DNA of 64,000 nucleotides from the IMG/VR virus record IMGVR_UViG_3300028805_000071; one strand, given 5' to 3'. This stretch comes from an uncultured virus (IMG/VR IMGVR_UViG_3300028805_000071) (lineage: Duplodnaviria > Heunggongvirae > Uroviricota > Caudoviricetes). Both the position numbers and the translations under genes were made by a program. Below the pieces are notes generated by a model that saw only the letters and a program-made list of their open reading frames with translations, was not told where the DNA came from and did not search any database. Shown one piece after another: positions 45,697 to 64,000 of this stretch (positions are counted from its first letter, which is position 1; each line of letters opens with the position of its first letter).

Positions 45697-47313
45697 CTAA
45701 TTCTTTGACTCTTCATTAGCCAGAGTTTTATCGCTCTTTTCTGATTGCTCCTTCTCAGGGCGACCAGCAGAGTTCCCCTCTACATTACCTTCAGTTTTAC
45801 CACTAGAAGATTGAGACTTGTTGCCCAAAACATCTGTGCTGGACATAGTAGATGACATAAGAGGTGGAATCATAATCTCACTCAGATGAAGCATATTGTT
45901 TTCAAAGAATGCAGTGTTGATAATATCGCTTTGTGAATGTCCAAGAGCGATTTGCGGTAACATTTTAGAATATCCAATTTGTACTTGCTCTTTGTACATC
46001 TTTGATAATTCTTTATAATTATATTGTGTTGTTTCTAACATATATAATCTAAAGTTAAATTTTTTAGCATACTTTGGTTCAAGATACTCTTGAGTAAGTT
46101 TATCAAAGAAAATTCTAAACTGTAATAATAAATGGCGCATTGAACCTTCATCAGATAATACAGATTTTTCTAACGCAAGATTTCCATCTGTATTGAATAA
46201 GTTCTTTGAAACACCTAATGCATTATATACAGTTCTTTCAACTCTTTCTAATTGGTCATTTGCTTCACTAGCATTTGTATCACTAATATCGATAGATTCT
46301 ACATCTGCAAAAGTAGTTAATACATCTACACCAATAGCACGACTTAACATCATAACCGCATTATTATGAATATCTGCGGCTTCATCAACGTCAAAAATTA
46401 AATCTCCATTTTTATCTCTTGGTAATTTTTGAACTAAAATTTTCATTAACTGTTGTAATTGTTTACGACGGTCAATGTCTTGAGCATCATCTAAATCTAA
46501 AATATTAGGGATGGCGTTTACGAACAATGGTAAATCGTCGTCTCCTCCCATGTCATGCAGAGAGAATTTAATTACAGAACCTGGTTCTAATAAATACCAA
46601 CTACCATATTGAACGCCCCACTCGTCTCTTGGTAATTTACCTTCTTTATATAACATATACCCCTTTGCAAATTCGGGCGGGAACATTTTTAAAACTCTCA
46701 TACGATAAGCAGGGTCGGCAAATTCAGCATCAAATCATTGCATATTAAATTCAACAGCTGGTAAATTACCTACATAATATCTTACTCGACAATAATCAAT
46801 AGGTAATTTTTGCACTAAAAATCCATGATTGCCTTCAAATACATAACCATAATAACATCCGTCTAATATTACATCACGAGAAATCTTATTACATAAATTC
46901 TTTAAATATGAACTGTCTAAATAATTTAACACACGATTAAATTGTTCAATAAGTTTTTCCTCTTTTACCTTTTGGTCATATACCTCTGGCACAATGTACC
47001 AATCCCACCTATACATATTAGCATAATAATCACATACCTTTTGATAAATTCCGTTAACTCTATAAAAATATCTTGAAATTTTTCTTAAAGTAGGTAAATC
47101 TTTTCTTGCTAATGCTCTTAATATAAAATGTTTATCGGCATACATGCGCTCTGGGCCATTAATATATCGATAATAATTACCTAATTGTATTGTCGCATCT
47201 TGTACTGTTTTTACGCCGATTTTAACTTTATTATACTCGGTTGGGAGGGGGCCATCAACTAAATTAAAACCTTTTTCATGGATGGTTTCTTGCTTTGTTT
47301 TTTCTTCGTCCAT
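45697..47313 (-). CDS. Portal protein (538 aa, one TGA=Trp)
   Basis: Track ORFs join via TGA at 46735; lies between terminase and protease; C-terminal PPLMSSTMS...GRP. Confidence 0.8.
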
Positions 47314-47329
47314 CAATTAACCTCCTCAT

Positions 47330-50763: not shown

Positions 50764-51798
50764 ATTTCTGCAATTTTTACAAATAGAATAAAATCCGTCT
50801 TTACTTGTATTGTTTTTACTGAAGTAACGTGAGTGCGCCAATTTCACTTTACCGCAACGACTGCAGCGTTTATATTTGCCTTTTTCTTTAAAAGTATAAT
50901 ACCAATTAAGAAAATATTCTTGCGATAAGTCTGAAATTAAATTAGGAATTTTCTTGCGCCATAATGAAGAAATATATTCTAAGGAGTGGGTTGTTCCAAA
51001 TTCTTCGTCTAAAACTTCTTGAATGGCTTGATTAGAGAGTCCATCAATTTTTAATTCAGTAATACGTAAAAGTAAAGGATGCGATTGAAGAGCGGCCCAA
51101 GAAATTGTATCAAAATCTTGCATGATACACCATAAATCACTTGTGGGGTGTTCTCACGCATTTTGCTTTAAATTAGAATAATTGCATAAGATACCAGAGC
51201 AACATCTAGGGTCACATAAACTAATCCCGCTCCAGCGCACGGTCCCATCGGCTTCAACCCATTCTTCACTTTCCAGCTTTACTGTGCTGGGAAGGGAGTA
51301 GTGAATTGAATGGGCATGAATTAAATACTCGCTTTTAATTTGATATTGTTGTTTACGAAAGTCAATTAATGCTTTCTTGGCGAGATACTTATTACGACCG
51401 GTCGCAGTTGCAGAAATCTTTTTCCATGCTTCAATGGCTTCTTGCACCTCCCGCATTCCCGGGAGGGTATCAATATCATGCTGTGTAATTTTTTGTTTTG
51501 GTTGGAAAAGGATGTGCTTATTATCATTTTTAATTGCATAAATACCATCTTCGCCATTCTCGAATTTATCAGCTAATGCTTGATAAGATGTTTCGCGTTT
51601 GTTGATGGTTACCATGCGGTTTTCTGTCAGGATTTTTTTCTGTTTGCGTTCTTCCTTTTCCATGCAGAAAATTAGATAGTCAGCTAACACTTCAAGGTCA
51701 TCATTAGTAAGGTCAGGATTCTCAGCGACAATTTGTTCTACATACTCCTTGCGCGCTAAAGAACTTTCTAATGTGTAATCCAATTTTACTGTTATCAT
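50737..51798 (-). CDS. Putative transcription regulator with sigma-region-4-like HTH and C-terminal Zn finger (353 aa, one TGA=Trp)
   Basis: Join via TGA at 51154; LKIDGLSNQAIQEVL...SLEYISSLW HTH-like; CSRC...CKNC. Confidence 0.6.
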
Positions 51799-51818
51799 TC
51801 AACTACCTCCATAGTAGC

Positions 51819-51883
51819 ATTATAGCAAAAAATATTATGTAAAGCAAAAAAATATTGACAAAATTATAAAAATTTGATATAAT
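51819..51883. promoter_or_regulatory. Divergent sigmaA promoter pair
   Basis: Plus: TTGACA(51855)-17-TATAAT(51878). Minus: TTGCTT(51847)-17-TATAAT(51824), with extended -10 TG. Confidence 0.85.
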
Positions 51884-51920
51884 TTATATATAAAAAATAT
51901 ATTGGGATAAAAATAAAATT

Positions 51921-52124
51921 ATGGAATTAATATCAAAAGAAGAATTAATTAAAGAATTAAAAGGCTCGGTATTAATGATGAGAGATATTCCCACCTGGCC
52001 GCCCACATATGAAGATACTAATATTTTTCATATTATAGATAAAATACCAGTTATTGAAGTAGATGAAGATGTAATGCCTCCCTGCGCATGGGGCGACAGT
52101 TGTGCATACTACACTTCAGAGTAA
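51921..52124 (+). CDS. Small hypothetical protein, MxLISK family
   Basis: First gene after the promoter; paralogous N-terminus. Confidence 0.65.
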   Translation: MELISKEELIKELKGSVLMMRDIPTWPPTYEDTNIFHIIDKIPVIEVDEDVMPPCAWGDSCAYYTSE

Positions 52125-52136
52125 GGAGATAGGTAA

Positions 52137-52349
52137 ATGGCAAAACTTAAATTTGATATACAAGAAAGTTCGCCACTTATTAAATTTGGCGCACTACAAG
52201 AAGGTGAAATATTTTTGTATCATAATGCACCTTTTATAAAAGCAAACGATAATCACGTACCTAATTTAGTTAATGGCTGTTGGACGTTAATTGATGATGA
52301 TGAACTTGTTACTTACGTCAAATCTGCTGAATTAAAATTAACGATATAA
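52137..52349 (+). CDS. Small hypothetical protein
   Basis: RBS AAGGAG. Confidence 0.65.
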   Translation: MAKLKFDIQESSPLIKFGALQEGEIFLYHNAPFIKANDNHVPNLVNGCWTLIDDDELVTYVKSAELKLTI

Positions 52350-52361
52350 TAAGAGGAAAAA

Positions 52362-52625
52362 ATGGATTTAATATCAAAAGCTGAGGCAATTAGCGCAATA
52401 GATAATATGAGAGCGCAGCCGGACGAAGATGGATATTTATTAATTTATAAAATGGATGCAGTAGATAATATTAGATGTTTACCAGTACAAGAACCTAAAC
52501 GAGGCTATTGGATAGTCGATAAAGATAATATTGGATGTTCAGAATGTGATACGTGGTATATATCAAAGTACATGACGCACAGGAACTTTTGTCCTAATTG
52601 CGGAGTATTAATGGAGGAAGAATAA
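52362..52625 (+). CDS. Zn-ribbon protein, MxLISK family
   Basis: CSEC...FCPNCG. Confidence 0.7.
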   Translation: MDLISKAEAISAIDNMRAQPDEDGYLLIYKMDAVDNIRCLPVQEPKRGYWIVDKDNIGCSECDTWYISKYMTHRNFCPNCGVLMEEE

Positions 52626-52626
52626 T

Positions 52627-52833
52627 ATGGAAGTAGCAATAAAACCTTGTCCTTATTGCGACGATGCTTGGGTATATGCTTCTGTTGGAGATTATGGAAG
52701 TGGATATGAAAGTTATGGCTATCGAATGCAGTGCAGATGTGGGTTTGCTTGGAAAACTATCAACTGGCATGATAACAAAGATGAGGCGATAAAGGAATGG
52801 AATGCGGAGGTGTCTAATGATAGCAATTCCTAA
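52627..52833 (+). CDS. Lar (restriction alleviation)-like Zn-binding protein
   Basis: IKPCPYC...CRCG...EAIKEWN pattern. Confidence 0.55.
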   Translation: MEVAIKPCPYCDDAWVYASVGDYGSGYESYGYRMQCRCGFAWKTINWHDNKDEAIKEWNAEVSNDSNS

Positions 52834-53116
52834 TATAGATAAGCCGCAGCGTTGTCAAGAATGCCCGGCACATACATTTAACTATGGATATATTCCAGGT
52901 GACAATGGTTGTCGCATTTTGAAACGTGCATTCAATATAGATAAGTTAGATATAAACCCTTTTAATGAAGTTCTTCCCGATTGCCCGTTAATCGACATTG
53001 TAGAATGTTGGGAATGCGAATATTATAGGGGCCATGAAGAATATTGTGATATAGACCAGTTTGCAAGAGAACATGGTTTTTGCTATAGCGGAAAAAGGAG
53101 AAACAATGGCGTATAA
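52817..53116 (+). CDS. Cys-rich hypothetical protein
   Basis: GGAGG RBS before ATG 52817; PQRCQECP...PDCPL. Confidence 0.65.
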   Translation: MIAIPNIDKPQRCQECPAHTFNYGYIPGDNGCRILKRAFNIDKLDINPFNEVLPDCPLIDIVECWECEYYRGHEEYCDIDQFAREHGFCYSGKRRNNGV

Positions 53117-53291
53117 ACAATTATGTGACATTTGTGGGCAGGAAATCCACGAGGTGTATTTCGACCCAAGGAAATTCAAGTACAAGCGAAGAATATTCGG
53201 CACTTATGAAACGGTGGACATCTGTCAAGAATGTGCAGAAGAAATGGAGAAATACATTAGAGAAAGGAAAAAGAATGGCGCAACTGATTAA
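53106..53291 (+). CDS. Zn-binding hypothetical protein
   Basis: AAGGAG RBS; CDICG...DICQEC. Confidence 0.65.
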   Translation: MAYKQLCDICGQEIHEVYFDPRKFKYKRRIFGTYETVDICQECAEEMEKYIRERKKNGATD

Positions 53292-53784
53292 AGCACCGAG
53301 CCAAGAAGAGCCTAAATACATTTCTGTATTTTTAGCAGGAGGTATCACTAACTGTAAGAATTGGCAGAAAGAAGTCGAGAAATATCTCTCTAATATAAAA
53401 AAGATTTCTGTTATTAACCCACGGAACGATAAATTTGATGTTACAAATGAACAAGCATCAAAGAATCAGATACAGTGGGAGTTTGACCGATTGGAAAAGG
53501 CAGACATATTTAGTATGTACTTTTGCAATAGTGACTCGGTTCAGCCCATATGTCTTTATGAACTTGGAAGAAATATAGTCCGTATGCAGCAGAGATTCCC
53601 AAACGATTGGGAGGACAGAATAATTATAAGCGTAGAAAACGGATACTCAAGAGAGTTCGACGTGATTATGCAGACAAAGTTGTGCGCATCAAGGCTATTA
53701 GTATTTACAAATGCTAGTCCTTATTCTCACGCAGTAAAAATAGATGAGAAAGTAACAAAGATAAGGAGCAACGATGATATATAA
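53275..53784 (+). CDS. Nucleoside 2-deoxyribosyltransferase-like protein
   Basis: SVFLAGGITNCKNWQ, INPR, QIQWE and PICLYELG motifs. Confidence 0.8.
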   Translation: MAQLIKAPSQEEPKYISVFLAGGITNCKNWQKEVEKYLSNIKKISVINPRNDKFDVTNEQASKNQIQWEFDRLEKADIFSMYFCNSDSVQPICLYELGRNIVRMQQRFPNDWEDRIIISVENGYSREFDVIMQTKLCASRLLVFTNASPYSHAVKIDEKVTKIRSNDDI

Positions 53785-54052
53785 GAAATACCAGGCAAAC
53801 CACGAAGAAGAGAAAATAGAAACAGACGGGTGTAATGGATGTAAATATATTTTTGTACAGACCTGGGAAGAACCATGCAGACGATGTAAGCGTACCGCAA
53901 AGGACTTATATGAAAGGGCAAGTAATGAGATAAAACAAACGATAGAGGTATCTATTGAATCACTCAATGCTGATAGAGAAACAAATCGTAAAATATTAGA
54001 CGATATTAAATCAGGCAAAGGATTACCGCCGATAAAAATGGAGGGAAGATAA
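53774..54052 (+). CDS. Cys-containing hypothetical protein
   Basis: CNGCKY...EEPCRRCKR. Confidence 0.65.
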   Translation: MIYKKYQANHEEEKIETDGCNGCKYIFVQTWEEPCRRCKRTAKDLYERASNEIKQTIEVSIESLNADRETNRKILDDIKSGKGLPPIKMEGR

Positions 54053-54330
54053 TGAGCTTAATACTTGAAGGCATAGACCTGCCGAAAGGCGAGACAGCAG
54101 AAGTAATAATTCGCATTCAGCCGAATGGAGATATAAAAGATGGGCACGGAATATTATTAACAGAAACAAAAGCCACGCAGATATCCACCCCACACGGAAG
54201 GTTAATAGATGGCGGCAAACTTGACAAACTTGTTCATGAATGGAGTCCCGTCTATACATATGGAAGAAGTGCATTTACCAGAGCGATAGAAAATGCACCC
54301 ACGATATTAAAAGCAGAAGGAGAATGGTGA
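54052..54330 (+). CDS. Hypothetical protein, HG(R/D)LID...NAPTIL family; ends at TGA
   Basis: TAATG start coupling; TGATG overlap with the next gene. Confidence 0.7.
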   Translation: MSLILEGIDLPKGETAEVIIRIQPNGDIKDGHGILLTETKATQISTPHGRLIDGGKLDKLVHEWSPVYTYGRSAFTRAIENAPTILKAEGEW

Positions 54331-54617
54331 TGTCGTTTATAGTAAAGGGCATTGATTTACCAAAGGATAATAATAGTTTAGACATTCATATTTTTAATGG
54401 AAAAGTGGAAGTAGTACATCCGTTAGACGCTTGTGAATTAGCGCATATTAATGGCGAAGCTATCCAGATTCCTAAAGGCCATGGAGATATTAAAGATGTT
54501 AGTAAATTGCGCGTTAGCGAATATGATTGCGAGGGAGAGGTTAGTTGGTACACTATAAGGGCAGTGGATACGTGGGATATTGAGAATGCTCCAACGATAT
54601 TAGAAAGTGAGAAATAA
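54330..54617 (+). CDS. Hypothetical protein, HG(R/D)LID...NAPTIL family
   Basis: MSFIVKGIDLPK, paralogue of its neighbours. Confidence 0.7.
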   Translation: MSFIVKGIDLPKDNNSLDIHIFNGKVEVVHPLDACELAHINGEAIQIPKGHGDIKDVSKLRVSEYDCEGEVSWYTIRAVDTWDIENAPTILESEK

Positions 54618-54618
54618 G

Positions 54619-54912
54619 ATGCAAATAGTAATAGATATACCTAATAGTGATATTACATCAAAACAAAATATTATAAATCTTGATTTGCATTTTATTGATG
54701 GACATATTTGCGAATGCACCTATCCGTTTAAAGAACTACCCAAAGAACATGGAAAGCTGATAGACGCAGATGAAACAAGAAAGCAATATTACCAATGGAT
54801 GGAAGAGTTATTACAATCAACAACCATTAATATGTCCGCAGAGGCGTTGAGTTTATTATGCGGATTCACTTTAATAAATAATGCCCCGGCAGTATTAGAA
54901 GCAGAGGAGTAA
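54619..54912 (+). CDS. Hypothetical protein, HG(R/D)LID...NAPTIL family
   Basis: HGKLIDAD...NAPAVLEAEE. Confidence 0.7.
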   Translation: MQIVIDIPNSDITSKQNIINLDLHFIDGHICECTYPFKELPKEHGKLIDADETRKQYYQWMEELLQSTTINMSAEALSLLCGFTLINNAPAVLEAEE

Positions 54913-54913
54913 A

Positions 54914-55240
54914 ATGAGTTTAGTAATAAAAGGAATTAATAAACCAAAGGAAGGCGAAATGGTCGTTATAGGAATACAAGCGACAGACGCAGTTATTGAT
55001 ACTTGGGAAACCAGCGAAATAGATGGAGAAGACGTATTTGTAAAACGAGAACATATTAAACACGCTGATATTATTCAAATTCCAGAGGAGCATGGAGATA
55101 TTAAAGATATCAATACTTTTGTAAAAGATAAAAGTATATACGAATGCATTGAAAATGATGTATTTAACAAGAAATATACTTATTTGGTTGGTGTAGGTGC
55201 TATATATAATGCGCCAACGATTTTAGAAGCGGAGGAGTAA
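54914..55240 (+). CDS. Hypothetical protein, HG(R/D)LID...NAPTIL family
   Basis: MSLVIKGINKPK...HGDIKD...NAPTILEAEE. Confidence 0.7.
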   Translation: MSLVIKGINKPKEGEMVVIGIQATDAVIDTWETSEIDGEDVFVKREHIKHADIIQIPEEHGDIKDINTFVKDKSIYECIENDVFNKKYTYLVGVGAIYNAPTILEAEE

Positions 55241-55241
55241 T

Positions 55242-55469
55242 ATGGAAGTAACATGTTGTGACATTTGCCGCAAACCTTTAACTCGTAAAGGATATAAAGA
55301 CCAAGACGGCAAGGATTGGAGAGATATAAGTTTTAGAGAACGCAAATATAGTACAAGGATATTCTCATTTGTAAAAAGCGCATTTGATACCGAATATATA
55401 TCCGTGTGCGGATATTGTCGTTCAGAATTAGCAAAACATAATCCTAGGGAAGGACTAAAGGGAGAATAA
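55242..55469 (+). CDS. Zn-binding hypothetical protein
   Basis: CCDIC...CGYC; GGAGG RBS. Confidence 0.65.
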   Translation: MEVTCCDICRKPLTRKGYKDQDGKDWRDISFRERKYSTRIFSFVKSAFDTEYISVCGYCRSELAKHNPREGLKGE

Positions 55470-55765
55470 TGATAGGATTAATATCCAGAGATGAAGCAAT
55501 TAAACAAATAGACGAAGCGTTTGACGTTGGTGGATGTTATTGTGATAAATATGCAATCCGAGGCATATTAAGAAGCCTTCCCACTATAGAAGAACGCAAA
55601 GAGGGGAGATGGGTAAGAATCACTCAAGACGTGGGTGTAGGACCTCATCTATATAAGTGTAGTGAATGTCATAGAGTTATTGAATATAGTAGTTCCGAAC
55701 TCCCCTGCTTGTTGGAGATGAAGTTTCCTTACTGTCATTGCGGAGCAAAGATGAGAGGAGAATAA
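55469..55765 (+). CDS. Zn-ribbon protein, MxLISR family
   Basis: LPTIEERKEGRW...CSEC...CHCGAKM. Confidence 0.7.
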   Translation: MIGLISRDEAIKQIDEAFDVGGCYCDKYAIRGILRSLPTIEERKEGRWVRITQDVGVGPHLYKCSECHRVIEYSSSELPCLLEMKFPYCHCGAKMRGE

Positions 55766-55766
55766 T

Positions 55767-55841
55767 ATGGGAGACAAGTTTTATAAATATTTCTTTTATA
55801 TTATAGGGGTAATGGCAATCTTGAAATTTATATTAGGATAG
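55767..55841 (+). CDS. 24-aa hydrophobic peptide
   Basis: GAGGAG RBS, MGDKFYKYFFYIIGVMAILKFILG*, fills the gap. Confidence 0.5.
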   Translation: MGDKFYKYFFYIIGVMAILKFILG

Positions 55842-55854
55842 ATAGGAGAATAAT

Positions 55855-56127
55855 ATGGAATTAATATCAAGACAAGACGTAAAGGACACGATTAAACGCA
55901 AACCCTTTTCTTTGATTGATGAACGAATACTAATGAATACCATTGATTCTATCCCCACTGTAGAAGAACGGAAAGAAAGTGAATGGATAATCCTTAAAGA
56001 ACCTACCGGGGGACTACCGAAAAGATGGCGAGTTAAATGTCCGATTTGTCGTAAAACATTAAGAATAAGAGATAAAGAATTATGGGAGTTTTGTCCTTGT
56101 TGTGGAACAAGGATGGGGAAAAAATAA
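55855..56127 (+). CDS. Zn-ribbon protein, MxLISR family
   Basis: IPTVEERKESEW...CPIC...FCPCCG. Confidence 0.7.
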   Translation: MELISRQDVKDTIKRKPFSLIDERILMNTIDSIPTVEERKESEWIILKEPTGGLPKRWRVKCPICRKTLRIRDKELWEFCPCCGTRMGKK

Positions 56128-56128
56128 A

Positions 56129-56377
56129 ATGAAAACAATAGAACAAGTACGTGAAGAAACAAAATTAGGCGATGTATTTATAGGCGAAGTATTTACTTTA
56201 GAAGAATTTATGGAAGAGGTAGACCGTGGCAGCATCACCGAATACGACGGCATTGGCTATTTCCATGATGGGGAAAAAGAAACTGCTATTAGCGTGTTTT
56301 CTCCTATATGGTTTAAATACAACAGCGTCGATGAAGTTATAGAACAATTTCCATATGTAATTTGGTATAATAAATAG
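56129..56377 (+). CDS. Hypothetical protein
   Basis: YDGIGYF...YVIWYNK. Confidence 0.65.
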   Translation: MKTIEQVREETKLGDVFIGEVFTLEEFMEEVDRGSITEYDGIGYFHDGEKETAISVFSPIWFKYNSVDEVIEQFPYVIWYNK

Positions 56378-56386
56378 GAGAATGAT

Positions 56387-56581
56387 ATGATAGAAATTTC
56401 AGAATGGGAATTAGCAAGACTTCGAGAGCATGACAAAAGTTATTATGAATTAAAACAAGAAAAGGAAGATTTATGTTCTGCATTAGCTCCTATATTTAAA
56501 CAACTGATTGAAAACTTAGATGATGAAACTTTATATAAGTTAAAAACAGATATGGGCCAGGCGTGTCTATATTATGACTGA
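56387..56581 (+). CDS. Hypothetical protein ending at TGA (in frame with the next gene)
   Basis: AGGAG RBS. Confidence 0.6.
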   Translation: MIEISEWELARLREHDKSYYELKQEKEDLCSALAPIFKQLIENLDDETLYKLKTDMGQACLYYD

Positions 56582-56605
56582 ACAAAAGTAGATAAGGAAA
56601 ATAAT

Positions 56606-56797
56606 ATGGTAAAAGCAAATGACGTAGAAATTTATATAAAATGGTATGGTTCTAATGGGTTTGGCGAATACAATATTTGGACAGACACAGAGGGCCGCAT
56701 TAAAGGCGATTCTGAGTATATGGACAAAGGCGACAAAAAAGATTTTTTGAAAAGTTTATTTGACTCTATTTTAGAGCAGATTGAGATAGTTGGATAA
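56606..56797 (+). CDS. Hypothetical protein
   Basis: AAGGA RBS. Confidence 0.6.
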   Translation: MVKANDVEIYIKWYGSNGFGEYNIWTDTEGRIKGDSEYMDKGDKKDFLKSLFDSILEQIEIVG

Positions 56798-57018
56798 TGG
56801 GAATAATAGACGATATAAATAAATTGCACCAGGTTGGATTACAGAATGGAGTGGAATATAAGACGTTAAGAATTAATAGGGAATTATTGGATAAACTTGA
56901 AGCGGAGATAAATGGGTTCGTGCAGCCGGCGACGCTAGATAATTCGATAGCGACGTTGTTCGGTATGAAAATAGAGCCAGTAGAGGACTCAGACTATTGT
57001 TATATATTGGAGGATTAG
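56797..57018 (+). CDS. Hypothetical protein
   Basis: TAATG coupling. Confidence 0.6.
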   Translation: MGIIDDINKLHQVGLQNGVEYKTLRINRELLDKLEAEINGFVQPATLDNSIATLFGMKIEPVEDSDYCYILED

Positions 57019-57019
57019 T

Positions 57020-57163
57020 ATGGGGATAGCGTTTTTGATGGCGGTAGGGTTTGCGGCTTTCTTCGTGCTGGGGTATACTCTGGGCCATATGGCAGGGTTT
57101 AACCACGGCCATGAGGCAGGTATCGAGGAAGAACGCGACAGGTATTGCCGGATGGGGCCTTGA
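57020..57163 (+). CDS. Small membrane protein (47 aa) ending at TGA
   Basis: GGAGG RBS; MGIAFLMAVGFAAFFVLGY... Confidence 0.6.
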   Translation: MGIAFLMAVGFAAFFVLGYTLGHMAGFNHGHEAGIEEERDRYCRMGP

Positions 57164-57188
57164 CAAAATTAAAAATAAATGTTATAAT
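57160..57188 (+). promoter_or_regulatory. sigmaA promoter
   Basis: TTGACA-17-TATAAT with extended -10 TG. Confidence 0.85.
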
Positions 57189-57217
57189 TTATATATAAAG
57201 TGAAAGGAAAAAAATAA

Positions 57218-57421
57218 ATGGATAACGGAGCAACAGTAGGAAAAATGTTCTATAGAGGCCAAGAGTACGAGGCTCATCTGGACGCAGAAGGAAACTTATT
57301 GGTGCCGTCATTCTTTAAAGATGGCTCTGAGTTAATTGTGTATTATGTGAAGGTGCCGGTGGAGCTCCTGGAGACCATATATACAATGACCAAGCAGAGA
57401 TATGAACTTGAAAATTTATAA
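57218..57421 (+). CDS. Hypothetical protein
   Basis: Own promoter and AAAGGA RBS. Confidence 0.65.
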   Translation: MDNGATVGKMFYRGQEYEAHLDAEGNLLVPSFFKDGSELIVYYVKVPVELLETIYTMTKQRYELENL

Positions 57422-57436
57422 AAAATTTGATATAAT
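57408..57436 (+). promoter_or_regulatory. sigmaA promoter with no downstream ORF
   Basis: TTGAAA-17-TATAAT with extended -10 TG. Confidence 0.7.
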
Positions 57437-57442
57437 ATTAAT

Positions 57443-57555
57443 ATAAAGAAGAGAAAATTTAAATATAAAAAAACCAAACTCTTTACCTTTCTTACACTCT
57501 CTTCTTCCCAGTTGCTGGGAGTTGGGCGGGGCCGCAGGCTCCGCCTTTTTGTTTT
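57443..57555 (+). ncRNA. Candidate small RNA with a pyrimidine-rich anti-RBS tract
   Basis: Bounded by the promoter at 57408 and terminator GGCGGGGCC-GCA-GGCTCCGCC-TTTTT; no ORF or RBS. Confidence 0.45.
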
Positions 57556-57592
57556 GGTAAAACTTGGGGTCGACGGGAGGGGGAGACAATAA

Positions 57593-57606
57593 CGAACACG
57601 CGTTCT
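57593..57606. promoter_or_regulatory. LexA (Cheo/SOS) box
   Basis: CGAACACGCGTTCT versus the Firmicute consensus CGAACRNRYGTTCG. Confidence 0.6.
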
Positions 57607-57699
57607 TTTTTTGTTTTTTTCCCAAAAAACACCCCCCAGTATATACGTAGATATACCGGTGGCTCGCGCGAGCCAGCGAGGTAGGACCCGGGGGGTCGG

Positions 57700-58905
57700 G
57701 CCCTAAACAAACAAACAAGCTAATGACACACAGGACATTAAACAAAATAAATTTTGTTAAAAGATAAGATTAAATACCAAAAGCAAACATAAATCAATTG
57801 TTTAAATAAATAAATAACAATCAATACAATACTATAATGCATAGTCATCCACTACTGCTGCTCTACCCATGGCATGGCACAGTATACCAATAGTAGATGA
57901 CACACAACACACTACTGAGAGCTTGGCGCTGGGGCGGTCACCGTTGACGAGCGTGAAAAGTGCTGATTCGCGCAAGGAGAAGCTTTGCAGAAAAAATCGC
58001 ACAACAACACAACAAATGTAATACAATCATTTATCCTAAAACTCTAATACACCACGACAGTAGGGGCAATGCATGCACACACAGACAGAGGGGCAGCCAG
58101 GCTGGCCAGCCACAGCCAACGAGCAAACAACGAACATACAAAGAACAATAGATTAACACACAAGCAACACACAACACACAACACACACATAATGATATAA
58201 TAATATATATAATATATATACATACACATAGGTATAGGGATGCCATGGGGTAGGGGTAGGGGGCGTGGTGTGGTAGGCACACAGTATAGTAACACAATAA
58301 GATAGATAATAAACATATAATATAATACACAAACAGTAAACAGTATTCTATCTATTGGTTTCAGTATGGGTATGAGATATGTGGTAATGTAGTAATAATA
58401 CCTAGACACGTAAGCTGTAGTGTATAGCTACACAGTACACAAGCAGGACACAACGTGTAACACAAAGGGTGAGACACACATAGATACATACACATACACA
58501 CACAACAACAGACACACAGACAATCAACAACACAAGCAACACATACACAACAACAGATAGATAGATACACAACATACAATAATACATACACACAAAGAGA
58601 TAGATAAGAACAAGACAATAGACAACACAAGCAATCAACCAACAGACAAAGAGAAGATAGAATAAAAGATAAAAGAAAATAAATAGAAATAAGATTTGTT
58701 ATTGTGTTTTAGTTTCAGGTACAGTGTATGGTATAGGTAGTATACCAAGGGGTAGTCTGCAGGTCTACTGGACAGGGTAGGTGCAGTGGGGCATAGACCT
58801 AATGGCCAACAGAGAGACAGAGAGAGAAAGAAGATAAAGAGATAATAAAGTATTAACAACAACACAAAGAATAATAATTGATATTTATATATGATATATT
58901 GCATG
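57700..58905. repeat. Strand-biased low-complexity CA/ACAA/AGAT-rich non-coding tract
   Basis: Imperfect ACAC, ACAA and AGAT runs; no TT dinucleotide on the plus strand between 58362 and 58694. Confidence 0.8.
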
Positions 58906-58990
58906 GCTGTGGGGCTGGGCCTGCCCCCGCGCCGCCCCCGGCCATGGCGGCGCGAGTTTTCGCTGTATACAGCCCGTGCATAAAATTTAA

Positions 58991-59166
58991 CGCTTCACCG
59001 CGGTAAAGTGGTAACGCGGTGAACTCCTGAAATTCAGCACTTTAACGCGGTGAAGTGCGAAAGACTTTAGCGCGGTGAAGCGTTAACGCAGTAAAGCAAA
59101 TTTTTGTTTTTTGCGATAAAAAGCAAAAATTTTACTTTTTCCGCCATGCTTTAGTGAGTTAAAGCG
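58991..59166. promoter_or_regulatory. Cluster of HisR (TrpR-family)-like 20-bp palindromes
   Basis: YRCTTYA-N6-TRAAGYR at 58991, 59038, 59063, 59079 and 59147. Confidence 0.6.
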
Positions 59167-59180
59167 TTGAAGTCCGTCGC

Positions 59181-59198
59181 TTGTTAAAAATTTAACAA
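59181..59198. promoter_or_regulatory. Rex operator
   Basis: TTGTTAA-AAAT-TTAACAA, matching the clostridial Rex consensus TTGTTAA-N4-TTAACAA. Confidence 0.7.
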
Positions 59199-59199
59199 T

Positions 59200-59233
59200 G
59201 TTATAAGTATGCAAAAAAATGTATAAAAAAACT
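59200..59233. promoter_or_regulatory. Tandem ARG-box-like pair
   Basis: GTTATAAGTATGCA-N6-TGTATAAAAAAACT. Confidence 0.4.
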
Positions 59234-59315
59234 TTTAAAAAAAGTATTGACAAATTGCTAAAGGTATGATAATATATAATTACAAAAGGGAGAGAAAACA
59301 AAGAGAGGTAACAAG

Positions 59316-59564
59316 ATGTATACAGTAACAAATGACGCAAAGGCAAAGACAATCAACGAAAACACAAAGTATGTTGCAATCGCACCGCTTCTTGAAACTG
59401 TTATAAATATGTCAAAGGACAAGGCTCCTTACACAGTGCTTACTGTTGGAGCAACACTCGAAGAGGTTGAGATGTTCGCTTCTTCCGATTGGATGATGGC
59501 TCACGCAATCGTTGATGGTTGGTGGACAATCGTAACAATCGATGAAATAACAATCAATAACTAA
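59316..59564 (+). CDS. Early hypothetical protein (82 aa)
   Basis: Promoter, GAGAGG RBS, terminator at 59563-59586. Confidence 0.75.
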   Translation: MYTVTNDAKAKTINENTKYVAIAPLLETVINMSKDKAPYTVLTVGATLEEVEMFASSDWMMAHAIVDGWWTIVTIDEITINN

Positions 59565-59598
59565 AAAAGGCGAAAGCCTTTTTTTATTTGCGTCGTGG

Positions 59599-59612
59599 CG
59601 AACATACGTTCG
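59599..59612. promoter_or_regulatory. LexA (Cheo/SOS) box
   Basis: CGAACATACGTTCG, exact consensus match. Confidence 0.8.
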
Positions 59613-59629
59613 GTTAGTCACCGCTAACC
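59612..59629. promoter_or_regulatory. GGTTAG-N6-CTAACC palindrome, DtxR/MntR-family-like operator
   Basis: GGTTAGTCACCGCTAACC abutting the LexA box. Confidence 0.4.
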
Positions 59630-59660
59630 AATAGGCACATTCCCCTCTTCCATCATCCTC

Positions 59661-59689
59661 ATTATAACATAAAACCGCAAGGCTGTCAA
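59661..59689 (-). promoter_or_regulatory. Minus-strand sigmaA promoter
   Basis: TTGACA-17-TATAAT with TG, reading towards the LexA box. Confidence 0.75.
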
Positions 59690-59782
59690 TAGAAAAAATA
59701 AAAAAAATTTTTTTAAAAAAGTATTGACAAACCCTCTTCAGTGTGCTATCATTATTATAGAAAGAAGAGAGGAGAACAAACA

Positions 59783-60214
59783 ATGAGAATTTGGTTAGAC
59801 ATGGACGGAACAATCGCAGACCTTTACGGAGTAGAAAACTGGCTCCCTATGTTAGAAGCAGAAGACCCTACACCTTACGCAATCGCAAGACCGCTTGTGA
59901 GAATGAACATTCTCGCAAGATTGTTAAATAAGGCACAGAGAAACGGCTATGAAATTTGCATCGTGTCCGCACTCTCAAAGAACGGCTCCGCAGAGTATGG
60001 GCAGAAAGTAATCAACGCAAAGTTAACTTGGTTACAGACCCACCTCGCAAGCGTAAAGTTTGACGAAATCCAGTTCGTATCTTACACCTACACAAAGAAC
60101 AATGTAAATAGTGGAAATGATATTCTTTTCGATGATGAAGAGAGACACCTCACCGCTTGGACGGGTGAAGCCTACAACGCAAGAAACATTTTAGAGGTTT
60201 TAAGAAACCTCTAA
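59783..60214 (+). CDS. HAD-superfamily 5'(3')-nucleotidase-like protein (143 aa)
   Basis: WLDMDGTIAD motif I, K..WL, ILFDD motif IV. Confidence 0.8.
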   Translation: MRIWLDMDGTIADLYGVENWLPMLEAEDPTPYAIARPLVRMNILARLLNKAQRNGYEICIVSALSKNGSAEYGQKVINAKLTWLQTHLASVKFDEIQFVSYTYTKNNVNSGNDILFDDEERHLTAWTGEAYNARNILEVLRNL

Positions 60215-60294
60215 TTTTTTTTATAAAAAAGGCTTGACAGAACACCAAAAGGATGATATAATAAAGGTACAGAAAACGAAAGGAGACCAAAGCA

Positions 60295-60468
60295 ATGAAG
60301 GAAGTTATAGGAATTGTAATCTTAAGTTTAATCGTTTTATTGGTAGTCGCCTCAATCGCATTTTTACTGTGGTTTGGCGTTTCATGGGCTTCGATAATGT
60401 TTCAAAATCTCGACATGGACGAGCCCACGGTATTAAGTTCGTGGAATCTATTTTCATTCATTGGATAG
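60295..60468 (+). CDS. Small membrane protein (57 aa)
   Basis: AAGGAG RBS; MKEVIGIVILSLIVLLVVASIAFLLWFG...; terminator follows. Confidence 0.7.
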   Translation: MKEVIGIVILSLIVLLVVASIAFLLWFGVSWASIMFQNLDMDEPTVLSSWNLFSFIG

Positions 60469-60500
60469 GAAAGAGGGCAAAGCCCTCTTTTTTCTGTTGT

Positions 60501-60617
60501 CGGTCAACTATTCCGAAAATTAATTTTTAGGGAATAGTTGGGCTTTTGGGCTTTTGGCAAGGGTTTTTTCTGTCAAGGAACTATTCCCAAAATTAGTTTT
60601 TAAGGAATAGTTGACCG
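60501..60617. promoter_or_regulatory. Duplicated CodY-box-like palindromic element
   Basis: Two copies of AACTATTCCNAAAATTANTTTT(T)ANGGAATAGTT; 3-4 mismatches to AATTTTCWGAAAATT. Confidence 0.45.
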
Positions 60618-60626
60618 ACCCCAATT

Positions 60627-60646
60627 CACTTTAGCGAATTAAAGCG
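60627..60646. promoter_or_regulatory. HisR-like palindrome
   Basis: CACTTTAGCGAATTAAAGCG. Confidence 0.6.
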
Positions 60647-60728
60647 TGAAAGAAAAAATTTTTAAAAAAGGGCTTGACAAACAAGCCTTTTTCTGTTATA
60701 CTATAATCAGAAAGAGAGGTAAAGACAA

Positions 60729-60899
60729 ATGACTACATTCGCACTTAACATTTTAATCATAACAGTAATACTTTTAATGGGTTTCGCCATTGGAATGATA
60801 ATTATTGAACTAATCAAAACCGCAAAGTTTCGCAAAGAGGTAAAAGCCACAAACGAGGCTTTAAAAGATTACGCAGAACATTGTTTGAAAAAATTTTAA
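60729..60899 (+). CDS. Small membrane protein (56 aa)
   Basis: Promoter plus GAGAGG RBS; MTTFALNILIITVILLMGF... Confidence 0.7.
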   Translation: MTTFALNILIITVILLMGFAIGMIIIELIKTAKFRKEVKATNEALKDYAEHCLKKF

Positions 60900-60970
60900 A
60901 AAAAGGGGTTGACAAACCCTTTTTTTCATGCTATAATAAACTCAAGAAAAGACAAAGAGAGGTAAACAAA

Positions 60971-61111
60971 ATGAAGTATTACACAGTACAGTGGTTCGAC
61001 AAAGAACTTGGAGAAATCTACAACACAATCACAAGCGAAAAGGGAGTTGCTTACATGCAGAAGCACCCCGAAGTGTATGACATTCTTCTGTTAGATATTT
61101 ACACCGAATAA
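60971..61111 (+). CDS. Early hypothetical protein (46 aa)
   Basis: Promoter plus GAGAGG RBS. Confidence 0.7.
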   Translation: MKYYTVQWFDKELGEIYNTITSEKGVAYMQKHPEVYDILLLDIYTE

Positions 61112-61176
61112 AAAAAAGGGGTTGACATTCAACCCCTTTTCTGTTATAATAAAGACAGAAAGAGAGGTAAAGACAA

Positions 61177-61374
61177 ATGACAATCCACAATATTGATAAC
61201 ACATTCTATGACTCAGAAATGAGCGTAAAAGAACTTATTGAATACTTAAAAGAAAACTATGACGAAAATAATAGGGTCACTTGGTTTATGCAAAAGACTC
61301 TTCCAAACAGAGATTTTCATAGAATTTACATTGATTCAGATGATTATTACATTGAAAAAGAAGAAGAGAGGTAA
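61177..61374 (+). CDS. Early hypothetical protein (65 aa)
   Basis: Promoter plus GAGAGG RBS; MSVKELIEYL similar to the gene at 61597. Confidence 0.7.
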   Translation: MTIHNIDNTFYDSEMSVKELIEYLKENYDENNRVTWFMQKTLPNRDFHRIYIDSDDYYIEKEEER

Positions 61375-61379
61375 ATAAA

Positions 61380-61538
61380 ATGACAATTTACGGACTTAAT
61401 AAGAAAGCAACAAAAGGCTTATACATCGTATACACAATAACTGAAGGAAGAAAGTATTTCTTGAGTGCTTGGAGAACAGAAGAAGACGCAAACAAAAGAG
61501 CAAAAAAATATTTTGGAAAAGTTTGGAAAAACTGTTGA
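61380..61538 (+). CDS. Early basic hypothetical protein (52 aa) ending at TGA
   Basis: GAGAGG RBS; MTIYGLNKKAT...KVWKNC; stop lies inside the next TTGACA. Confidence 0.65.
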   Translation: MTIYGLNKKATKGLYIVYTITEGRKYFLSAWRTEEDANKRAKKYFGKVWKNC

Positions 61539-61596
61539 CAAACCCCCAAAAGAGTGATATAATAAAGGTACAAAGAGAGAAAGAGAGGAAATAAAA

Positions 61597-61782
61597 ATGA
61601 CAGTAAAGGAATTAATCACAAGACTTGAAGCAGTAGAAAATAAAGATTTGGATGTAGTCATCAATAGCGATGATTACGGCAATGTAGTTGTTACCTATGT
61701 CTCGGAAATAGAAGTATACTACGGAAGAGATGAGGACACGGGTTGGTACTGTGATACAAGAGAATGTGTTTTACTCGAATAA
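61597..61782 (+). CDS. Early hypothetical protein (61 aa)
   Basis: MTVKELITRLE; promoter plus RBS. Confidence 0.7.
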   Translation: MTVKELITRLEAVENKDLDVVINSDDYGNVVVTYVSEIEVYYGRDEDTGWYCDTRECVLLE

Positions 61783-61859
61783 AAAATTTTAAAAAGGGCT
61801 TGACAGAGCCCTTTTTCTATGATATAATAAAGATAAGAAAAGAGAAAGGAAAGAAAAAA

Positions 61860-62027
61860 ATGTTTATACTTGGAATTTTAGTAGGATGGTTTATAGTTTA
61901 TTTAGGAGCAACAATTTGTTGCAACGCTTTTGATAAGGAAGAGTGGATGTCCTATTGGGTTGTTGGCCCGTTTCTCCCTCTTCATTTAGGAATCGGCTAT
62001 ATATATAATAAGTTAAGAAAAAAATAA
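61860..62027 (+). CDS. Small membrane protein (55 aa)
   Basis: Promoter plus RBS; hydrophobic. Confidence 0.65.
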   Translation: MFILGILVGWFIVYLGATICCNAFDKEEWMSYWVVGPFLPLHLGIGYIYNKLRKK

Positions 62028-62097
62028 AAAAAGGGTTGACAAACCAACAGAAAGATGTTATAATAAACTCAAGAAAAGAGAAAGAGAGGAAAAAACA

Positions 62098-62235
62098 ATG
62101 GACGAAAAAGCAAAAAGACTTGCAGACATTATGTTTGAAGAAGATGAATACAGAGACGCTAATGATATGGAACTGATGTATCACACAAAAGAAGATTTTG
62201 AAGCAGAGAAAAGAGAAAGAGAGGTAAAGAAATGA
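62098..62235 (+). CDS. Acidic hypothetical protein (45 aa) ending at TGA
   Basis: Promoter plus RBS; ATGA overlap with the gene at 62232. Confidence 0.7.
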   Translation: MDEKAKRLADIMFEEDEYRDANDMELMYHTKEDFEAEKREREVKK

Positions 62236-62426
62236 ATCCCAAGAACTTATTTGTAGGCAAGGCGACCGAAGCCATAAACGAAATCGATGAAATGAACAAC
62301 GAGTGCGTTGAAGAGTATGGCGACAAGTATGCGGATTGTTTCCCCGCATTAGCCACCAAGAGGGTAGAAATTGACGGCAAGACCTACAGAATGAAAATCG
62401 AAATCACCCTCACCGAAATAAAGTAA
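62232..62426 (+). CDS. Early hypothetical protein (64 aa)
   Basis: GAGAGG RBS. Confidence 0.7.
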   Translation: MNPKNLFVGKATEAINEIDEMNNECVEEYGDKYADCFPALATKRVEIDGKTYRMKIEITLTEIK

Positions 62427-62483
62427 AAATTACATTTTGACTGTATTTGTTTTCATTTGCCCCCTCAAGCGAGGGGGCTCCTT

Positions 62484-62541
62484 TCTATTTTTATACATTT
62501 GGATGTATAAATATTTATGCATGCGTGTGCATATTCATTCG
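62484..62541. promoter_or_regulatory. Two interleaved tandem ARG-box-like pairs
   Basis: TCTATTTTTATACA-N6-TGTATAAATATTTA and TAAATATTTATGCA-N6-TGCATATTCATTCG. Confidence 0.55.
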
Positions 62542-62704
62542 TGCTTTCACACGGTGAAGTGTGAAAGCAAATTTTTATTTTTTGCGATAAAACGCAAAAT
62601 TTTGCCAATCCCATCAGCCGCGCGCCAGTGGCCCAGGCGAGCGGAGTTTGATTTTTTTGGGGCTTTGGCAAAATTTTACCCTAAAGCGACAGAAAGCGAA
62701 AATT

Positions 62705-62758
62705 TGCTTTAATTCACTAAAGTGCTGAAGTGTTAGCACTCGCACCCAAGAGTGCTAA
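62705..62758. promoter_or_regulatory. HisR-like box followed by a CIRCE-like element
   Basis: TGCTTTAATTCACTAAAGTG (62705), then TTAGCACTC-N8-GAGTGCTAA (62733-62758; perfect arms, spacer one short of the canonical N9). Confidence 0.7.
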
Positions 62759-62866
62759 TAACAAAAAATTTTTTTCGTAAATTTTTAAAAAGTGCTTGCA
62801 TTTGGGTCTGTGATGTGGTAATATACTTATAGAGGGGAACGCAAATAATAGAGAGGAGAAAAGACA

Positions 62867-62989
62867 ATGACATACGAAGAAATCAAGGCTTACATCAACA
62901 ACAAAATCGCCAATGGCGAACCGCTTCACGGATATGCGAGGGAACTCGCTATCGAGTTGGCTCTCAATGAAAAAGAGAGAGCCAACTAA
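62867..62989 (+). CDS. Early hypothetical protein (40 aa)
   Basis: Promoter plus GAGGAG RBS. Confidence 0.65.
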   Translation: MTYEEIKAYINNKIANGEPLHGYARELAIELALNEKERAN

Positions 62990-63089
62990 AAAAGAGAAAA
63001 AAAATTCTCTTTTTTTTAAAAAAGTACTTGCAATCTGCTTTGTAATGTGGTAATATAATATCGGGGGGAACAAGAGAGGAGAAAATAAA

Positions 63090-63494
63090 ATGACTTACTA
63101 CTTCGATATGGACGGCGTACTCGCTAACTTCCACAAGGCATATAAAGAAAACAAGGCAGTTGCACTCGACAAGGACGCAATGGCAAACCTCGAACCTTTT
63201 GAAGAGAATGTGGCTCTCGTAAATAACCTCATCTCTACTGGAATCAAGGTTTACATCCTCACCAAAGCCGCCAACGAAGATGGCAAGGCTGGAAAAATCG
63301 AGTGGCTTGCAAAGTACATCCCCGCTCTTGACCTTGAAAACTTCATTTGCATCGTAGGGGCTGGCAAGAAAATCGACTACATCAGAGAGGATGGAATCCT
63401 CGTTGATGACGATATGAAGAACCTCACCCCTTGGGCAAAGGCTGGCTTCGGCACCTACTTCGTAGAGGAGAAGGGTGCGGTCATCACCTTCTAA
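63090..63494 (+). CDS. HAD-superfamily 5'(3')-nucleotidase-like protein (134 aa)
   Basis: YFDMDGVLAN, KIEWL, ILVDD. Confidence 0.8.
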   Translation: MTYYFDMDGVLANFHKAYKENKAVALDKDAMANLEPFEENVALVNNLISTGIKVYILTKAANEDGKAGKIEWLAKYIPALDLENFICIVGAGKKIDYIREDGILVDDDMKNLTPWAKAGFGTYFVEEKGAVITF

Positions 63495-63520
63495 GGCAAA
63501 CCAACGGACGGGCAACCGTC

Positions 63521-63569
63521 CGTATTTTTATTCATGCTGATGTATAAAAATACAGCGAACATACGTTCG
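63521..63569. promoter_or_regulatory. Tandem ARG boxes abutting a LexA box
   Basis: CGTATTTTTATTCA-N6-TGTATAAAAATACA, then CGAACATACGTTCG (63556-63569). Confidence 0.75.
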
Positions 63570-63721
63570 GAAAATTTTACATTTGTGCGATAAAATGCAA
63601 AATTTTGCCAAAGTCCAGCTCGCCGCCAGCGGCAGCCGGCGGCGAGATTTTTATTTTTTGCGGGATTGCGGAAAAAATTTGCGTTTTTGCGGAAAAAATG
63701 CGAAAAAACGCGATTTCCCAA

Positions 63722-63776
63722 AACTTTCACACACTAAAGCGTTAAAGTGTTAGCACTCACCCCAATCGGGTGCTAA
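63722..63776. promoter_or_regulatory. HisR-like box followed by CIRCE
   Basis: AACTTTCACACACTAAAGCG (63722), then TTAGCACTC-N9-GGGTGCTAA (63750-63776, one mismatch). Confidence 0.7.
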
Positions 63777-63847
63777 CAGAAAAAAATTTTTTAAAAAATT
63801 TTAAAAAAAGTATTGACATTTCCAAGAGAGTATGGTAATATATAATT

Positions 63848-63960
63848 GTTCCAAGGGAGAGAGCGGAAACGAGTACTCCCTCAGGTTTTACAAGGTTAGT
63901 CACCGCGGGTTTTGACTGCAACACAAACCGAAACGATAGAGTGGCCACTCGAAAAATTTT
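63848..63960 (+). ncRNA. Candidate short non-coding transcript
   Basis: Promoter at 63813 is followed by no start codon; stems GGGAG/CTCCC and GAGTGGCCACTC before the next promoter. Confidence 0.35.
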
Positions 63961-64000
63961 TAAAAAACCCTTGACAGATAGCACCAAGTGTGCTACAATA

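Follow-up and report, generated by a model that had tools for sequence, protein, structure and literature searches.

The sequence analysed here is a 64,000-nt stretch (the window) of the uncultured virus record IMGVR_UViG_3300028805_000071 (Caudoviricetes), in which five long non-coding spacers, designated A to E and totalling 1399 nt, lie within an early region of small genes. Positions 1-52000 of the window hold large minus-strand genes with phage structural matches (portal, tape measure, virion proteins and a sigma-factor-like protein), and small plus-strand genes begin at 51855. Nearly all genes from 59247 onward are individually preceded by a consensus TTGACA-17-TATAAT promoter that includes an extended -10 and, upstream, an A/T-rich (UP) element. 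Most of these early genes have a terminator at their 3' end, and a long spacer precedes 5 of the 13 strong plus-strand promoters located between 59247 and 63971. A first-pass annotation had read the spacers as decoys packed with operators of many unrelated host repressors. We conclude from their sequence that the five spacers are genuine, selected arrays of putative protein-binding palindromes, placed in predicted untranscribed gaps between a terminator and a sigma-A-type promoter.

Spacer A (58900-59246) opens with a GC-rich island followed by three CTTYA-N6-TRAAG boxes (starting at 58993, 59040 and 59065), a TTTTGCG..GCAAAA element and a fourth box (start 59149; the four span 58993-59164), after which come a Rex-type box, ATGTATAAA, the A/T-rich UP region and the -35 at 59247. 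Spacer B (59565-59723) consists of a bidirectional terminator, a LexA box, a GTTAG box and a perfect minus-strand promoter (59689 to 59661) that reads back through the boxes, with a plus-strand promoter following at 59724. Two AACTATTCC-N16-GGAATAGTT palindromes (60506-60539 and 60579-60612) and one CTTTA-N6-TAAAG box (CTTTAGCGAATTAAAG, 60629-60644) make up the recognised content of spacer C (60469-60673). Spacer D (62427-62796) runs from a terminator through a TTTATACAT-TTGG-ATGTATAAA palindrome, the box CTTTCACACGGTGAAG (62544-62559), TTTGCGATAAAACGCAAA and a GC-rich island to the box CTTTAATTCACTAAAG (62707-62722), which with a trailing TGAAG abuts an element resembling CIRCE (controlling inverted repeat of chaperone expression), and then to a UP region and the -35 TTGCAT at 62797. 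Spacer E (63495-63812) comprises a terminator, TTTATTCAT-GCTG-ATGTATAAA, a LexA box, a GC-rich island, the box CTTTCACACACTAAAG (63724-63739) abutting a CIRCE, a UP region and the -35 at 63813. The right half of spacer E is a collinear paralogue of spacer D, and a comparison of the two finds the arms of the boxes and of the CIRCE retained and the inner spacers and flanks altered.

Perfect inverted repeats (arms of at least 6, gap of at most 10) cover 37, 23, 10, 38 and 17% of spacers A to E, compared with 4-8% in shuffles of the spacers, none of which (0/300) was as high as spacer A. The earlier description of the spacers as built largely from palindromes was thus right about the enrichment and overstated in its "largely"; the recognised motif families amount to 20 sites and 28% of the spacer length overall. 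An Rfam scan of 51500-64000 with E up to 1 returned just three sub-threshold matches, ascribed to chance.

The LexA (Cheo/SOS) box of Firmicutes has the consensus CGAAC-N4-GTTCG, and the CIRCE element recognised by HrcA reads TTAGCACTC-N9-GAGTGCTAA. Two identical and perfect LexA boxes (CGAACATACGTTCG) are present where they had first been seen, at 59599-59612, 15 nt past a terminator stem, and at 63556-63569 in spacer E; a third site does exist at 57593-57606, 47 nt past the terminator at 57524-57546, but its sequence (CGAACACGCGTTCT) departs from the consensus by one mismatch. Both of the CIRCE elements originally proposed were recovered, though neither is canonical throughout: the one at 62733-62758 (TTAGCACTC-N8-GAGTGCTAA) has perfect 9-nt arms around a spacer of 8 nt instead of 9, a variant seen in 7 of the 80 viral loci listed, and the one at 63750-63776 (TTAGCACTC-N9-GGGTGCTAA), whose end lies 36 nt before the -35, has one arm mismatch. 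The Rex box at 59181-59198 (TTGTTAAAAATTTAACAA) is a perfect match to the Clostridium consensus TTGTTAA-N4-TTAACAA, which section 2.13 of PMC5367854 attributes to Ravcheev et al. (2012). In all, the five spacers hold two perfect LexA boxes, two CIRCE-like elements and one perfect clostridial Rex box, whereas a perfect LexA box, a perfect Rex box or a CIRCE (N8 or N9, up to two mismatches) occurred in none of 300 first-order Markov shuffles. The remaining 62.6 kb of the window contains no perfect LexA, CIRCE or Rex copy. The LexA and clostridial-type Rex families match the consensus sequences of host repressors, and the HrcA/CIRCE family appears to do so. Neither the 34 early open reading frames (ORFs) of the window nor 102 of the 105 ORFs of the relative G002 yielded a LexA, Rex or HrcA homologue, the three ORFs crossing locus borders having been left out of that scan.

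The other palindromes had been given host-regulator names that proved less durable. The "about nine HisR-like boxes" are real sites, but they number eight, all between 58993 and 63739, and are CTTYM-N6-KRAAG palindromes, for which the HisR label is not supported. The GTTAG-N6-CTAAC box of spacer B (GTTAGTCACCGCTAAC) was found at 59613-59628, one position from its reported start of 59612. Its reading as a DtxR site was rejected: the DtxR/IdeR box is a 19-bp palindrome with GTTAG and CTAAC one base apart, the gap here is 6 nt, and no match occurred at up to two mismatches. At the same threshold neither the ArgR ARG box (TNTGAATWWWWATTCANW) nor the CodY box (AATTTTCWGAAAATT) had any spacer match; the supposed ARG-like pairs are really TTTATWCAT-N4-ATGTATAAA palindromes (62490 and 63527), and the supposed CodY-like elements at 60501-60617 are the AACTATTCC-N16-GGAATAGTT palindromes of spacer C, also present in two copies in the unrelated contig L023. 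Scanned by consensus sequence, CodY, ARG and DtxR did not rise above chance in the window spacers, nor did nine added control regulators, including Fur, PerR, cre, TnrA, CtsR, DnaA, Noc and parS. The TAAAG-type family, for its part, is probably not a common host operator. When the ORFs of 13 loci were compared by all-against-all BLAST, no ORF family co-occurred with the TAAAG or GTTAG boxes.

To place these sites in a wider context, related phages represented by IMG/VR contigs of 78-240 kb were compared with the window. The claim that the sites are shuffled between spacers gains support here, since the same motifs recur, reordered, in the spacers of these relatives. Long spacers in L001 and G002 follow the order terminator, GAACATAYGTTC, GC-rich core (often GGCCGG), CTTTAG-N5-TAAAG with a third TAAAG half-site, often TTGTTAAAWWTTTAACAA, sometimes ATACAT-N4-ATGTAT, UP region and promoter. 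In the 78-kb G002, 14 copies of GAACATAYGTTC, one GAACGAACGTTC and 12 Rex-type boxes (nine of them perfect) are all confined to about 11 kb (17.1-28.4 kb); elsewhere this contig has just three more GAAC-N4-GTTC matches, and reversed-pattern controls gave two matches for LexA and none for Rex. The composite of a LexA box followed after 5-35 nt by CTTTA-N6-TAAAG was found in 11 distinct viral contigs. GTTAG-N6-CTAAC boxes occupy the same architectural slots, around the same GC core, in L007 (35 copies) and L009 (13 copies). The relative G211, whose capsid-like protein is 69% identical to that of the window, carries 12 perfect TTGTGAA-N4-TTCACAA boxes (control 0), a sequence we take to be the Rex consensus outside Clostridia and whose half-site is presumably also Crp/Fnr-like; it further has two CIRCE elements, one perfect parS 16-mer and, within its first 18 kb, 16 GTTAG boxes, and a single 536-nt spacer holds 13 recognised sites at 45% coverage. 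In G212 (L165, 7793-7966) four CIRCE elements are arranged in tandem with a 49-bp unit, alternating with GTTAG-N6-CTAAC boxes just upstream of a promoter. The perfect parS 16-mer, TGTTTCACGTGAAACA, which presumably represents the Firmicute parS consensus, lies in early-region spacers of G211 (L163, 1295-1310), L015 and L082.

Motifs of this kind extend to phages whose capsid-like protein is merely 33-35% identical. The closest comparison is with L011, 98% identical to the window, where the few changes inside boxes hit the N6 and not the half-sites; the box at 60629, for example, differs at three N6 positions with its half-sites intact. At this identity there is too little change, and footprinting against L011 is therefore confined to few differences. 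On these comparisons the predicted sites are non-random, multi-copy and conserved as motifs while the intervening sequence drifts and the distance to the promoter varies, and this operator vocabulary is common to a group of related phages, being denser in the relatives than in the window itself.

Host genomes served as a yardstick. Among 41 sampled Clostridia genomes, perfect Rex boxes totalled nine, in six genomes and at most three in each (control 2), and GAACATAYGTTC occurred 0-3 times per genome. The CTTTA-N6-TAAAG-N2-TWAAG composite, searched in 201 Clostridia genomes, had five matches as against 14 in the reversed control, which is the level of chance. Considering that the Rex and LexA sites are far denser here than in the sampled Clostridia chromosomes and that the TAAAG composite is at chance level in Clostridia, the arrays appear to mix host-type operators with palindromes specific to the phage group.

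No site of the window overlaps a plus-strand -35 or -10: the gap to the downstream -35 is 36-38 nt for the CIRCE elements, 48 nt for the Rex box (-35 at 59247) and 22-90 nt for the TAAAG boxes. Overall the distance from site to -35 varies from about 24 to more than 200 nt, and G002 in particular shows widely varying distances. The LexA boxes, unlike a repressing operator, do not overlap plus-strand promoters; the CIRCE elements lie upstream of the -35 and not between promoter and gene start; and the Rex box likewise lies clear of its promoter. The first-pass statement that no site overlaps a -35 or -10 is hence accurate for plus-strand promoters; in spacer B, however, the minus-strand promoter at 59689 reads through the GTTAG and LexA boxes, and the LexA box at 59599 falls at about +42 to +55 of that promoter. 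Spacings within the same family (49; 54, 56, 44; 21, 28, 14, 34) display no helical phasing. LexA boxes of the window lie 15, 33 and 47 nt from the preceding terminator.

Two classes of site can be distinguished on this basis. The first would comprise perfect-consensus operators of the host global repressors LexA, Rex and HrcA, to which relatives add ParB parS sites; the second, CTTTA-N6-TAAAG, GTTAG-N6-CTAAC and AACTATTCC..GGAATAGTT, would be specific to the phage group and bound by proteins that are probably phage-encoded. Given the exact consensus in three families, the switching of the Rex variant between phages and the absence of homologues among the phage ORFs seen, host LexA, Rex and HrcA probably bind the host-type sites. 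The uniformly perfect, many-copy sites at promoter-independent positions would suit maximal repressor occupancy better than graded control of a neighbouring promoter, and since binding combined with a replicating genome makes titration of low-abundance repressors nearly automatic, we rank first the reading that the arrays are maximal-affinity docking sites for host repressors, alongside phage-clade-specific operators, with titration during phage DNA amplification as the likeliest output (probability roughly 0.35). Amplifying phage DNA would sequester LexA, Rex and HrcA and so loosen the SOS, redox/fermentation and chaperone regulons; a possible second effect would be local insulation or a roadblock between early cassettes. 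The stronger version, an effector made without any protein, in which LexA, Rex and HrcA arrays (with ParB parS) amplify with the genome and titrate host master repressors while the Rex type (TTGTTAA or TTGTGAA) tracks the host lineage, is a speculative proposal that we hold to be rather unlikely as it stands.

Several observations weigh against docking and titration. The copy numbers in the part of the phage seen are low (three LexA, one Rex and two CIRCE), the 8-nt spacer of the CIRCE at 62733 is expected to weaken HrcA binding, and LexA and HrcA are autoregulated, which would buffer any titration. The commonest families, with the TAAAG composite, are not of host type, so the arrays are not merely collections of host operators. 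In the relatives, the module order is conserved (terminator, LexA box, GC core, TAAAG box, Rex box, UP, promoter), and 6 of the 11 array-initial LexA boxes of G002 lie 15-20 nt past a detected terminator, an arrangement that hints at a role in cis. A perfect CIRCE of G211 starts 7 nt past a -10, the canonical repressing position, so that cis control by HrcA appears to be used in this phage group, and in the same relative five antisense promoters carry a GTTAGCGG-N3-CTAAC box 8-10 nt past the -10. Finally, the labels of the metagenome-assembled genomes (MAGs) containing capsid relatives are mixed, 8-9 of 12 being of Bacillota type and the remainder Treponema, Bacteroidales and Methanobrevibacter.

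These labels were considered unreliable and host assignment by them was dropped. The lysis genes of G002 (GH25 plus CW_7, SH3_3 and a Hol44 holin) indicate a Gram-positive host, and sequencing runs containing the window sequence come from sheep, goat and other animal gut metagenomes. The window is probably part of a large ruminant-gut phage with a host of the Bacillota, an assignment reached only indirectly, given that the lysis genes of a relative point to Gram-positive bacteria and that the MAG labels are mostly Bacillota yet mixed. In three metatranscriptome runs, 14-34% of sampled words of 57000-64000 were present.

Part of the evidence above fits a sensing function in cis, the next reading in rank and a tentative one, according to which the arrays are bound by host LexA, Rex and HrcA, joined in relatives by ParB at parS, and this binding serves to gate or insulate the early cassettes. 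On this view the early programme would run only in a damaged, reduced (high NADH) or proteotoxically stressed host and otherwise idle, a strategy like that of Spo0A/parS in phi29. All three repressors are released by stress signals, and perfect parS 16-mers in L015, L082 and G211, the canonical CIRCE of G211, the conserved module order and the tie of LexA boxes to terminators are as this reading would have them; phi29 and Nf offer a precedent, their early promoters being described as repressed through Spo0A sites (PMC2731898). The geometry of the window speaks against it, no site touching a plus-strand -35 or -10, at least 20-50 nt separating the sites from the -35 downstream, and helical phasing being absent. 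Uniformly perfect-consensus sites would also make poor graded sensors, and many early promoters have no array: about a third do in G002 (about 12 arrays for about 35 promoters), and in the window the proportion is the 5 of 13 given above. Sensing in cis and titration are not mutually exclusive.

Somewhat less likely still is that phage-encoded regulators, for instance of early shut-off or timing, bind all families, with the likeness to host operators arising by mimicry or convergence. The dominant family does vary at the same positions (GTTAG, 35 times, in L007; TAAAG, LexA-like and Rex-like in L001), the TAAAG composite is no host-genome motif, and the GTTAGCGG boxes open five antisense transcription units in G211. 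Most early ORFs belong to no known family, G002 has a weak winged-helix match (L042:3547-3888, E about 4e-4, below the Pfam cut-off), and GIL01, which reportedly encodes a LexA homologue acting on phage promoters (PMC6182141), would be a precedent. Such convergence would, however, have to produce three independent families equal to host consensus over 10-18 specified positions, and a Rex-type box alternating across phages between two known host variants (TTGTTAA and TTGTGAA); moreover, no LexA, Rex or HrcA homologue occurs in the parts examined, and no ORF family tracks the TAAAG or GTTAG boxes across the 13 loci.

That the palindromes have no dedicated binding function, being by-products of cassette duplication, recombination linkers like the promoter early stem-loops (PeSLs) of T4-type phages or RNA hairpins of small transcripts, is improbable, for although the short spacers are terminator hairpins holding a -35 as in PeSLs, L011 differs by one entire promoter-gene cassette, spacers D and E are paralogues and spacer B could plausibly encode a small RNA, this account leaves the exact host-operator matches unexplained and sits poorly with arms that stay perfect while flanks and internal spacers diverge, with the recurrence of the motifs at 33-35% capsid identity and with the rarity of minus-strand promoters in the G002 arrays. 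The candidate small RNA unit of spacer B (59560-59689, minus strand; z = -3.07) has a perfect TTGACA-17-TATAAT promoter, about 90 nt of predicted transcript and a terminator, and its GTTAG and LexA palindromes would fold into a nested hairpin; five similar units of promoter and GTTAGCGG box face against the early genes in G211. A small-RNA reading of the arrays in general was rejected because the G002 arrays hold only one minus-strand promoter with up to one mismatch, and it is kept for spacer B only.

Regarding the neighbouring genes, Pfam named among the 34 early window ORFs just two NT5C-type nucleotidases, a Lar-like protein and a nucleoside deoxyribosyltransferase-like protein, and no DNA-binding family. 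The paralogous NT5C-type 5'-nucleotidase genes lie amid the early cassettes at 59783-60214 and 63090-63494, the nucleoside 2-deoxyribosyltransferase-like gene at 53275-53784 and the Lar-like gene at 52627-52833, a set that hints at remodelling of nucleotide pools. After the first NT5C gene, L011 has one whole extra promoter-gene-terminator cassette (L011 17800-18340) encoding a P-loop protein of about 175 aa. In the structural region, two adjoining ORFs (334 and 193 aa) match the C- and N-terminal parts of portal family phrog_2739, and the portal gene at 45697-47316 (minus strand) is apparently split or interrupted; 15196-16122 and 17083-18516 similarly match opposite ends of phrog_32343. G001, the nearest record, is a 61-kb fragment of the same phage that does not extend the sequence to the right of the window, and a phage GenBank collection contained no real relative, just 60-80-nt promoter-like matches to Staphylococcus myoviruses.

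Two further untranslated stretches were noted. About 1.5 kb without a credible ORF (57440-58900), 98% identical in L011, starts with a terminator, the LexA-like box and GC-rich hairpins and continues as strand-asymmetric low-complexity sequence (runs of ACACAAC and GATAGATA, with G-rich patches); as in T5, this untranslated region may have a terminal position or a link to injection. L082 has a comparable low-complexity patch adjoining a CIRCE and a parS. Between a strong promoter and the next one (63813-63970) lie about 110 nt devoid of ORFs, with GGTTAGTCACCGC in common with spacer B and no fold signal in 63848-63956 (z = 0.05).

If host proteins do bind, the docking arrays would have one of two functions. 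They would act as a DNA sponge for host repressors that needs no protein, the first natural example of one, or they would let a virulent phage sense several inputs of host physiology at once, namely DNA damage, NADH/NAD+ ratio and protein folding. Phages are known to borrow individual host regulators, LexA and Spo0A among them, to time development; here a group of uncultured large gut phages combines perfect operator sequences of several unrelated host master repressors with putative operators of its own between genes of host-takeover type, which would be categorically new only if titration in trans were shown. LexA boxes and CIRCE are well conserved, and model Firmicutes are consequently usable for both readings. 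The Rex half-site type together with the LexA box type may also provide a sequence handle for inferring the hosts of uncultured phages.

Among known systems, the virulent phages phi29 and Nf come closest in carrying sites for a host global DNA-binding protein in the early region of a lytic Firmicute phage; their Spo0A sites repress early promoters and allow entrapment in the spore (PMC2731898). Perfect parS sites in relatives of the window extend the likeness. The phi29 sites, however, overlap or adjoin early promoters and origins and repress, whereas multi-repressor arrays stand tens to hundreds of bp upstream here. The injection-stop region of T5 is a large untranslated region with repeats, palindromes and eight DnaA boxes, for which host-protein binding was proposed (bioRxiv 10.1101/866236). 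Both it and the spacers are non-coding, inverted-repeat-rich sequence amid the earliest genes of a large virulent phage, with ordered host-protein sites, but T5 involves a single factor, DnaA, at a single locus in two-step injection, and the window spacers have no DnaA box above chance.

Host LexA operator consensus also occurs on phages and other mobile elements, for example GIL01 with gp7 (PMC4551915). GIL01 is temperate and has its boxes within the lysogenic promoter, whereas here 3 to 14 boxes stand just past terminators without promoter overlap, and the parts of the window phage and its relatives seen give no sign of lysogeny genes. In T4-type phages, small early ORFs are reportedly flanked by PeSLs, a composite terminator-promoter motif (PMC2839356 and PMC4122927). 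The short spacers of the window (60890-62070, for example 61112-61150), terminator hairpins whose loop, or the sequence next to it, carries the -35 of the promoter that follows, conform to this description, as does the cassette indel between the window and L011; the long spacers form an extra layer, and to our knowledge PeSLs have not been described with arrays of additional operator palindromes.

Full-text searches of the literature outside subscription journals found no natural phage DNA decoy or multi-repressor array for host repressors, and nothing pertinent on CIRCE titration either. In yeast, repeated synthetic decoys with high-affinity sites can sequester their factor and change target expression (PMC3322331). 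The arrays resemble these decoys, and operator titration on multicopy plasmids, in their repeated high-affinity sites, and in relatives these sites are many compared with the 0-3 perfect sites in each of the sampled Clostridia genomes (G002 has 14 boxes of LexA type and 12 of Rex type, G211 has 12 of Rex type, and G212 has four CIRCE elements).

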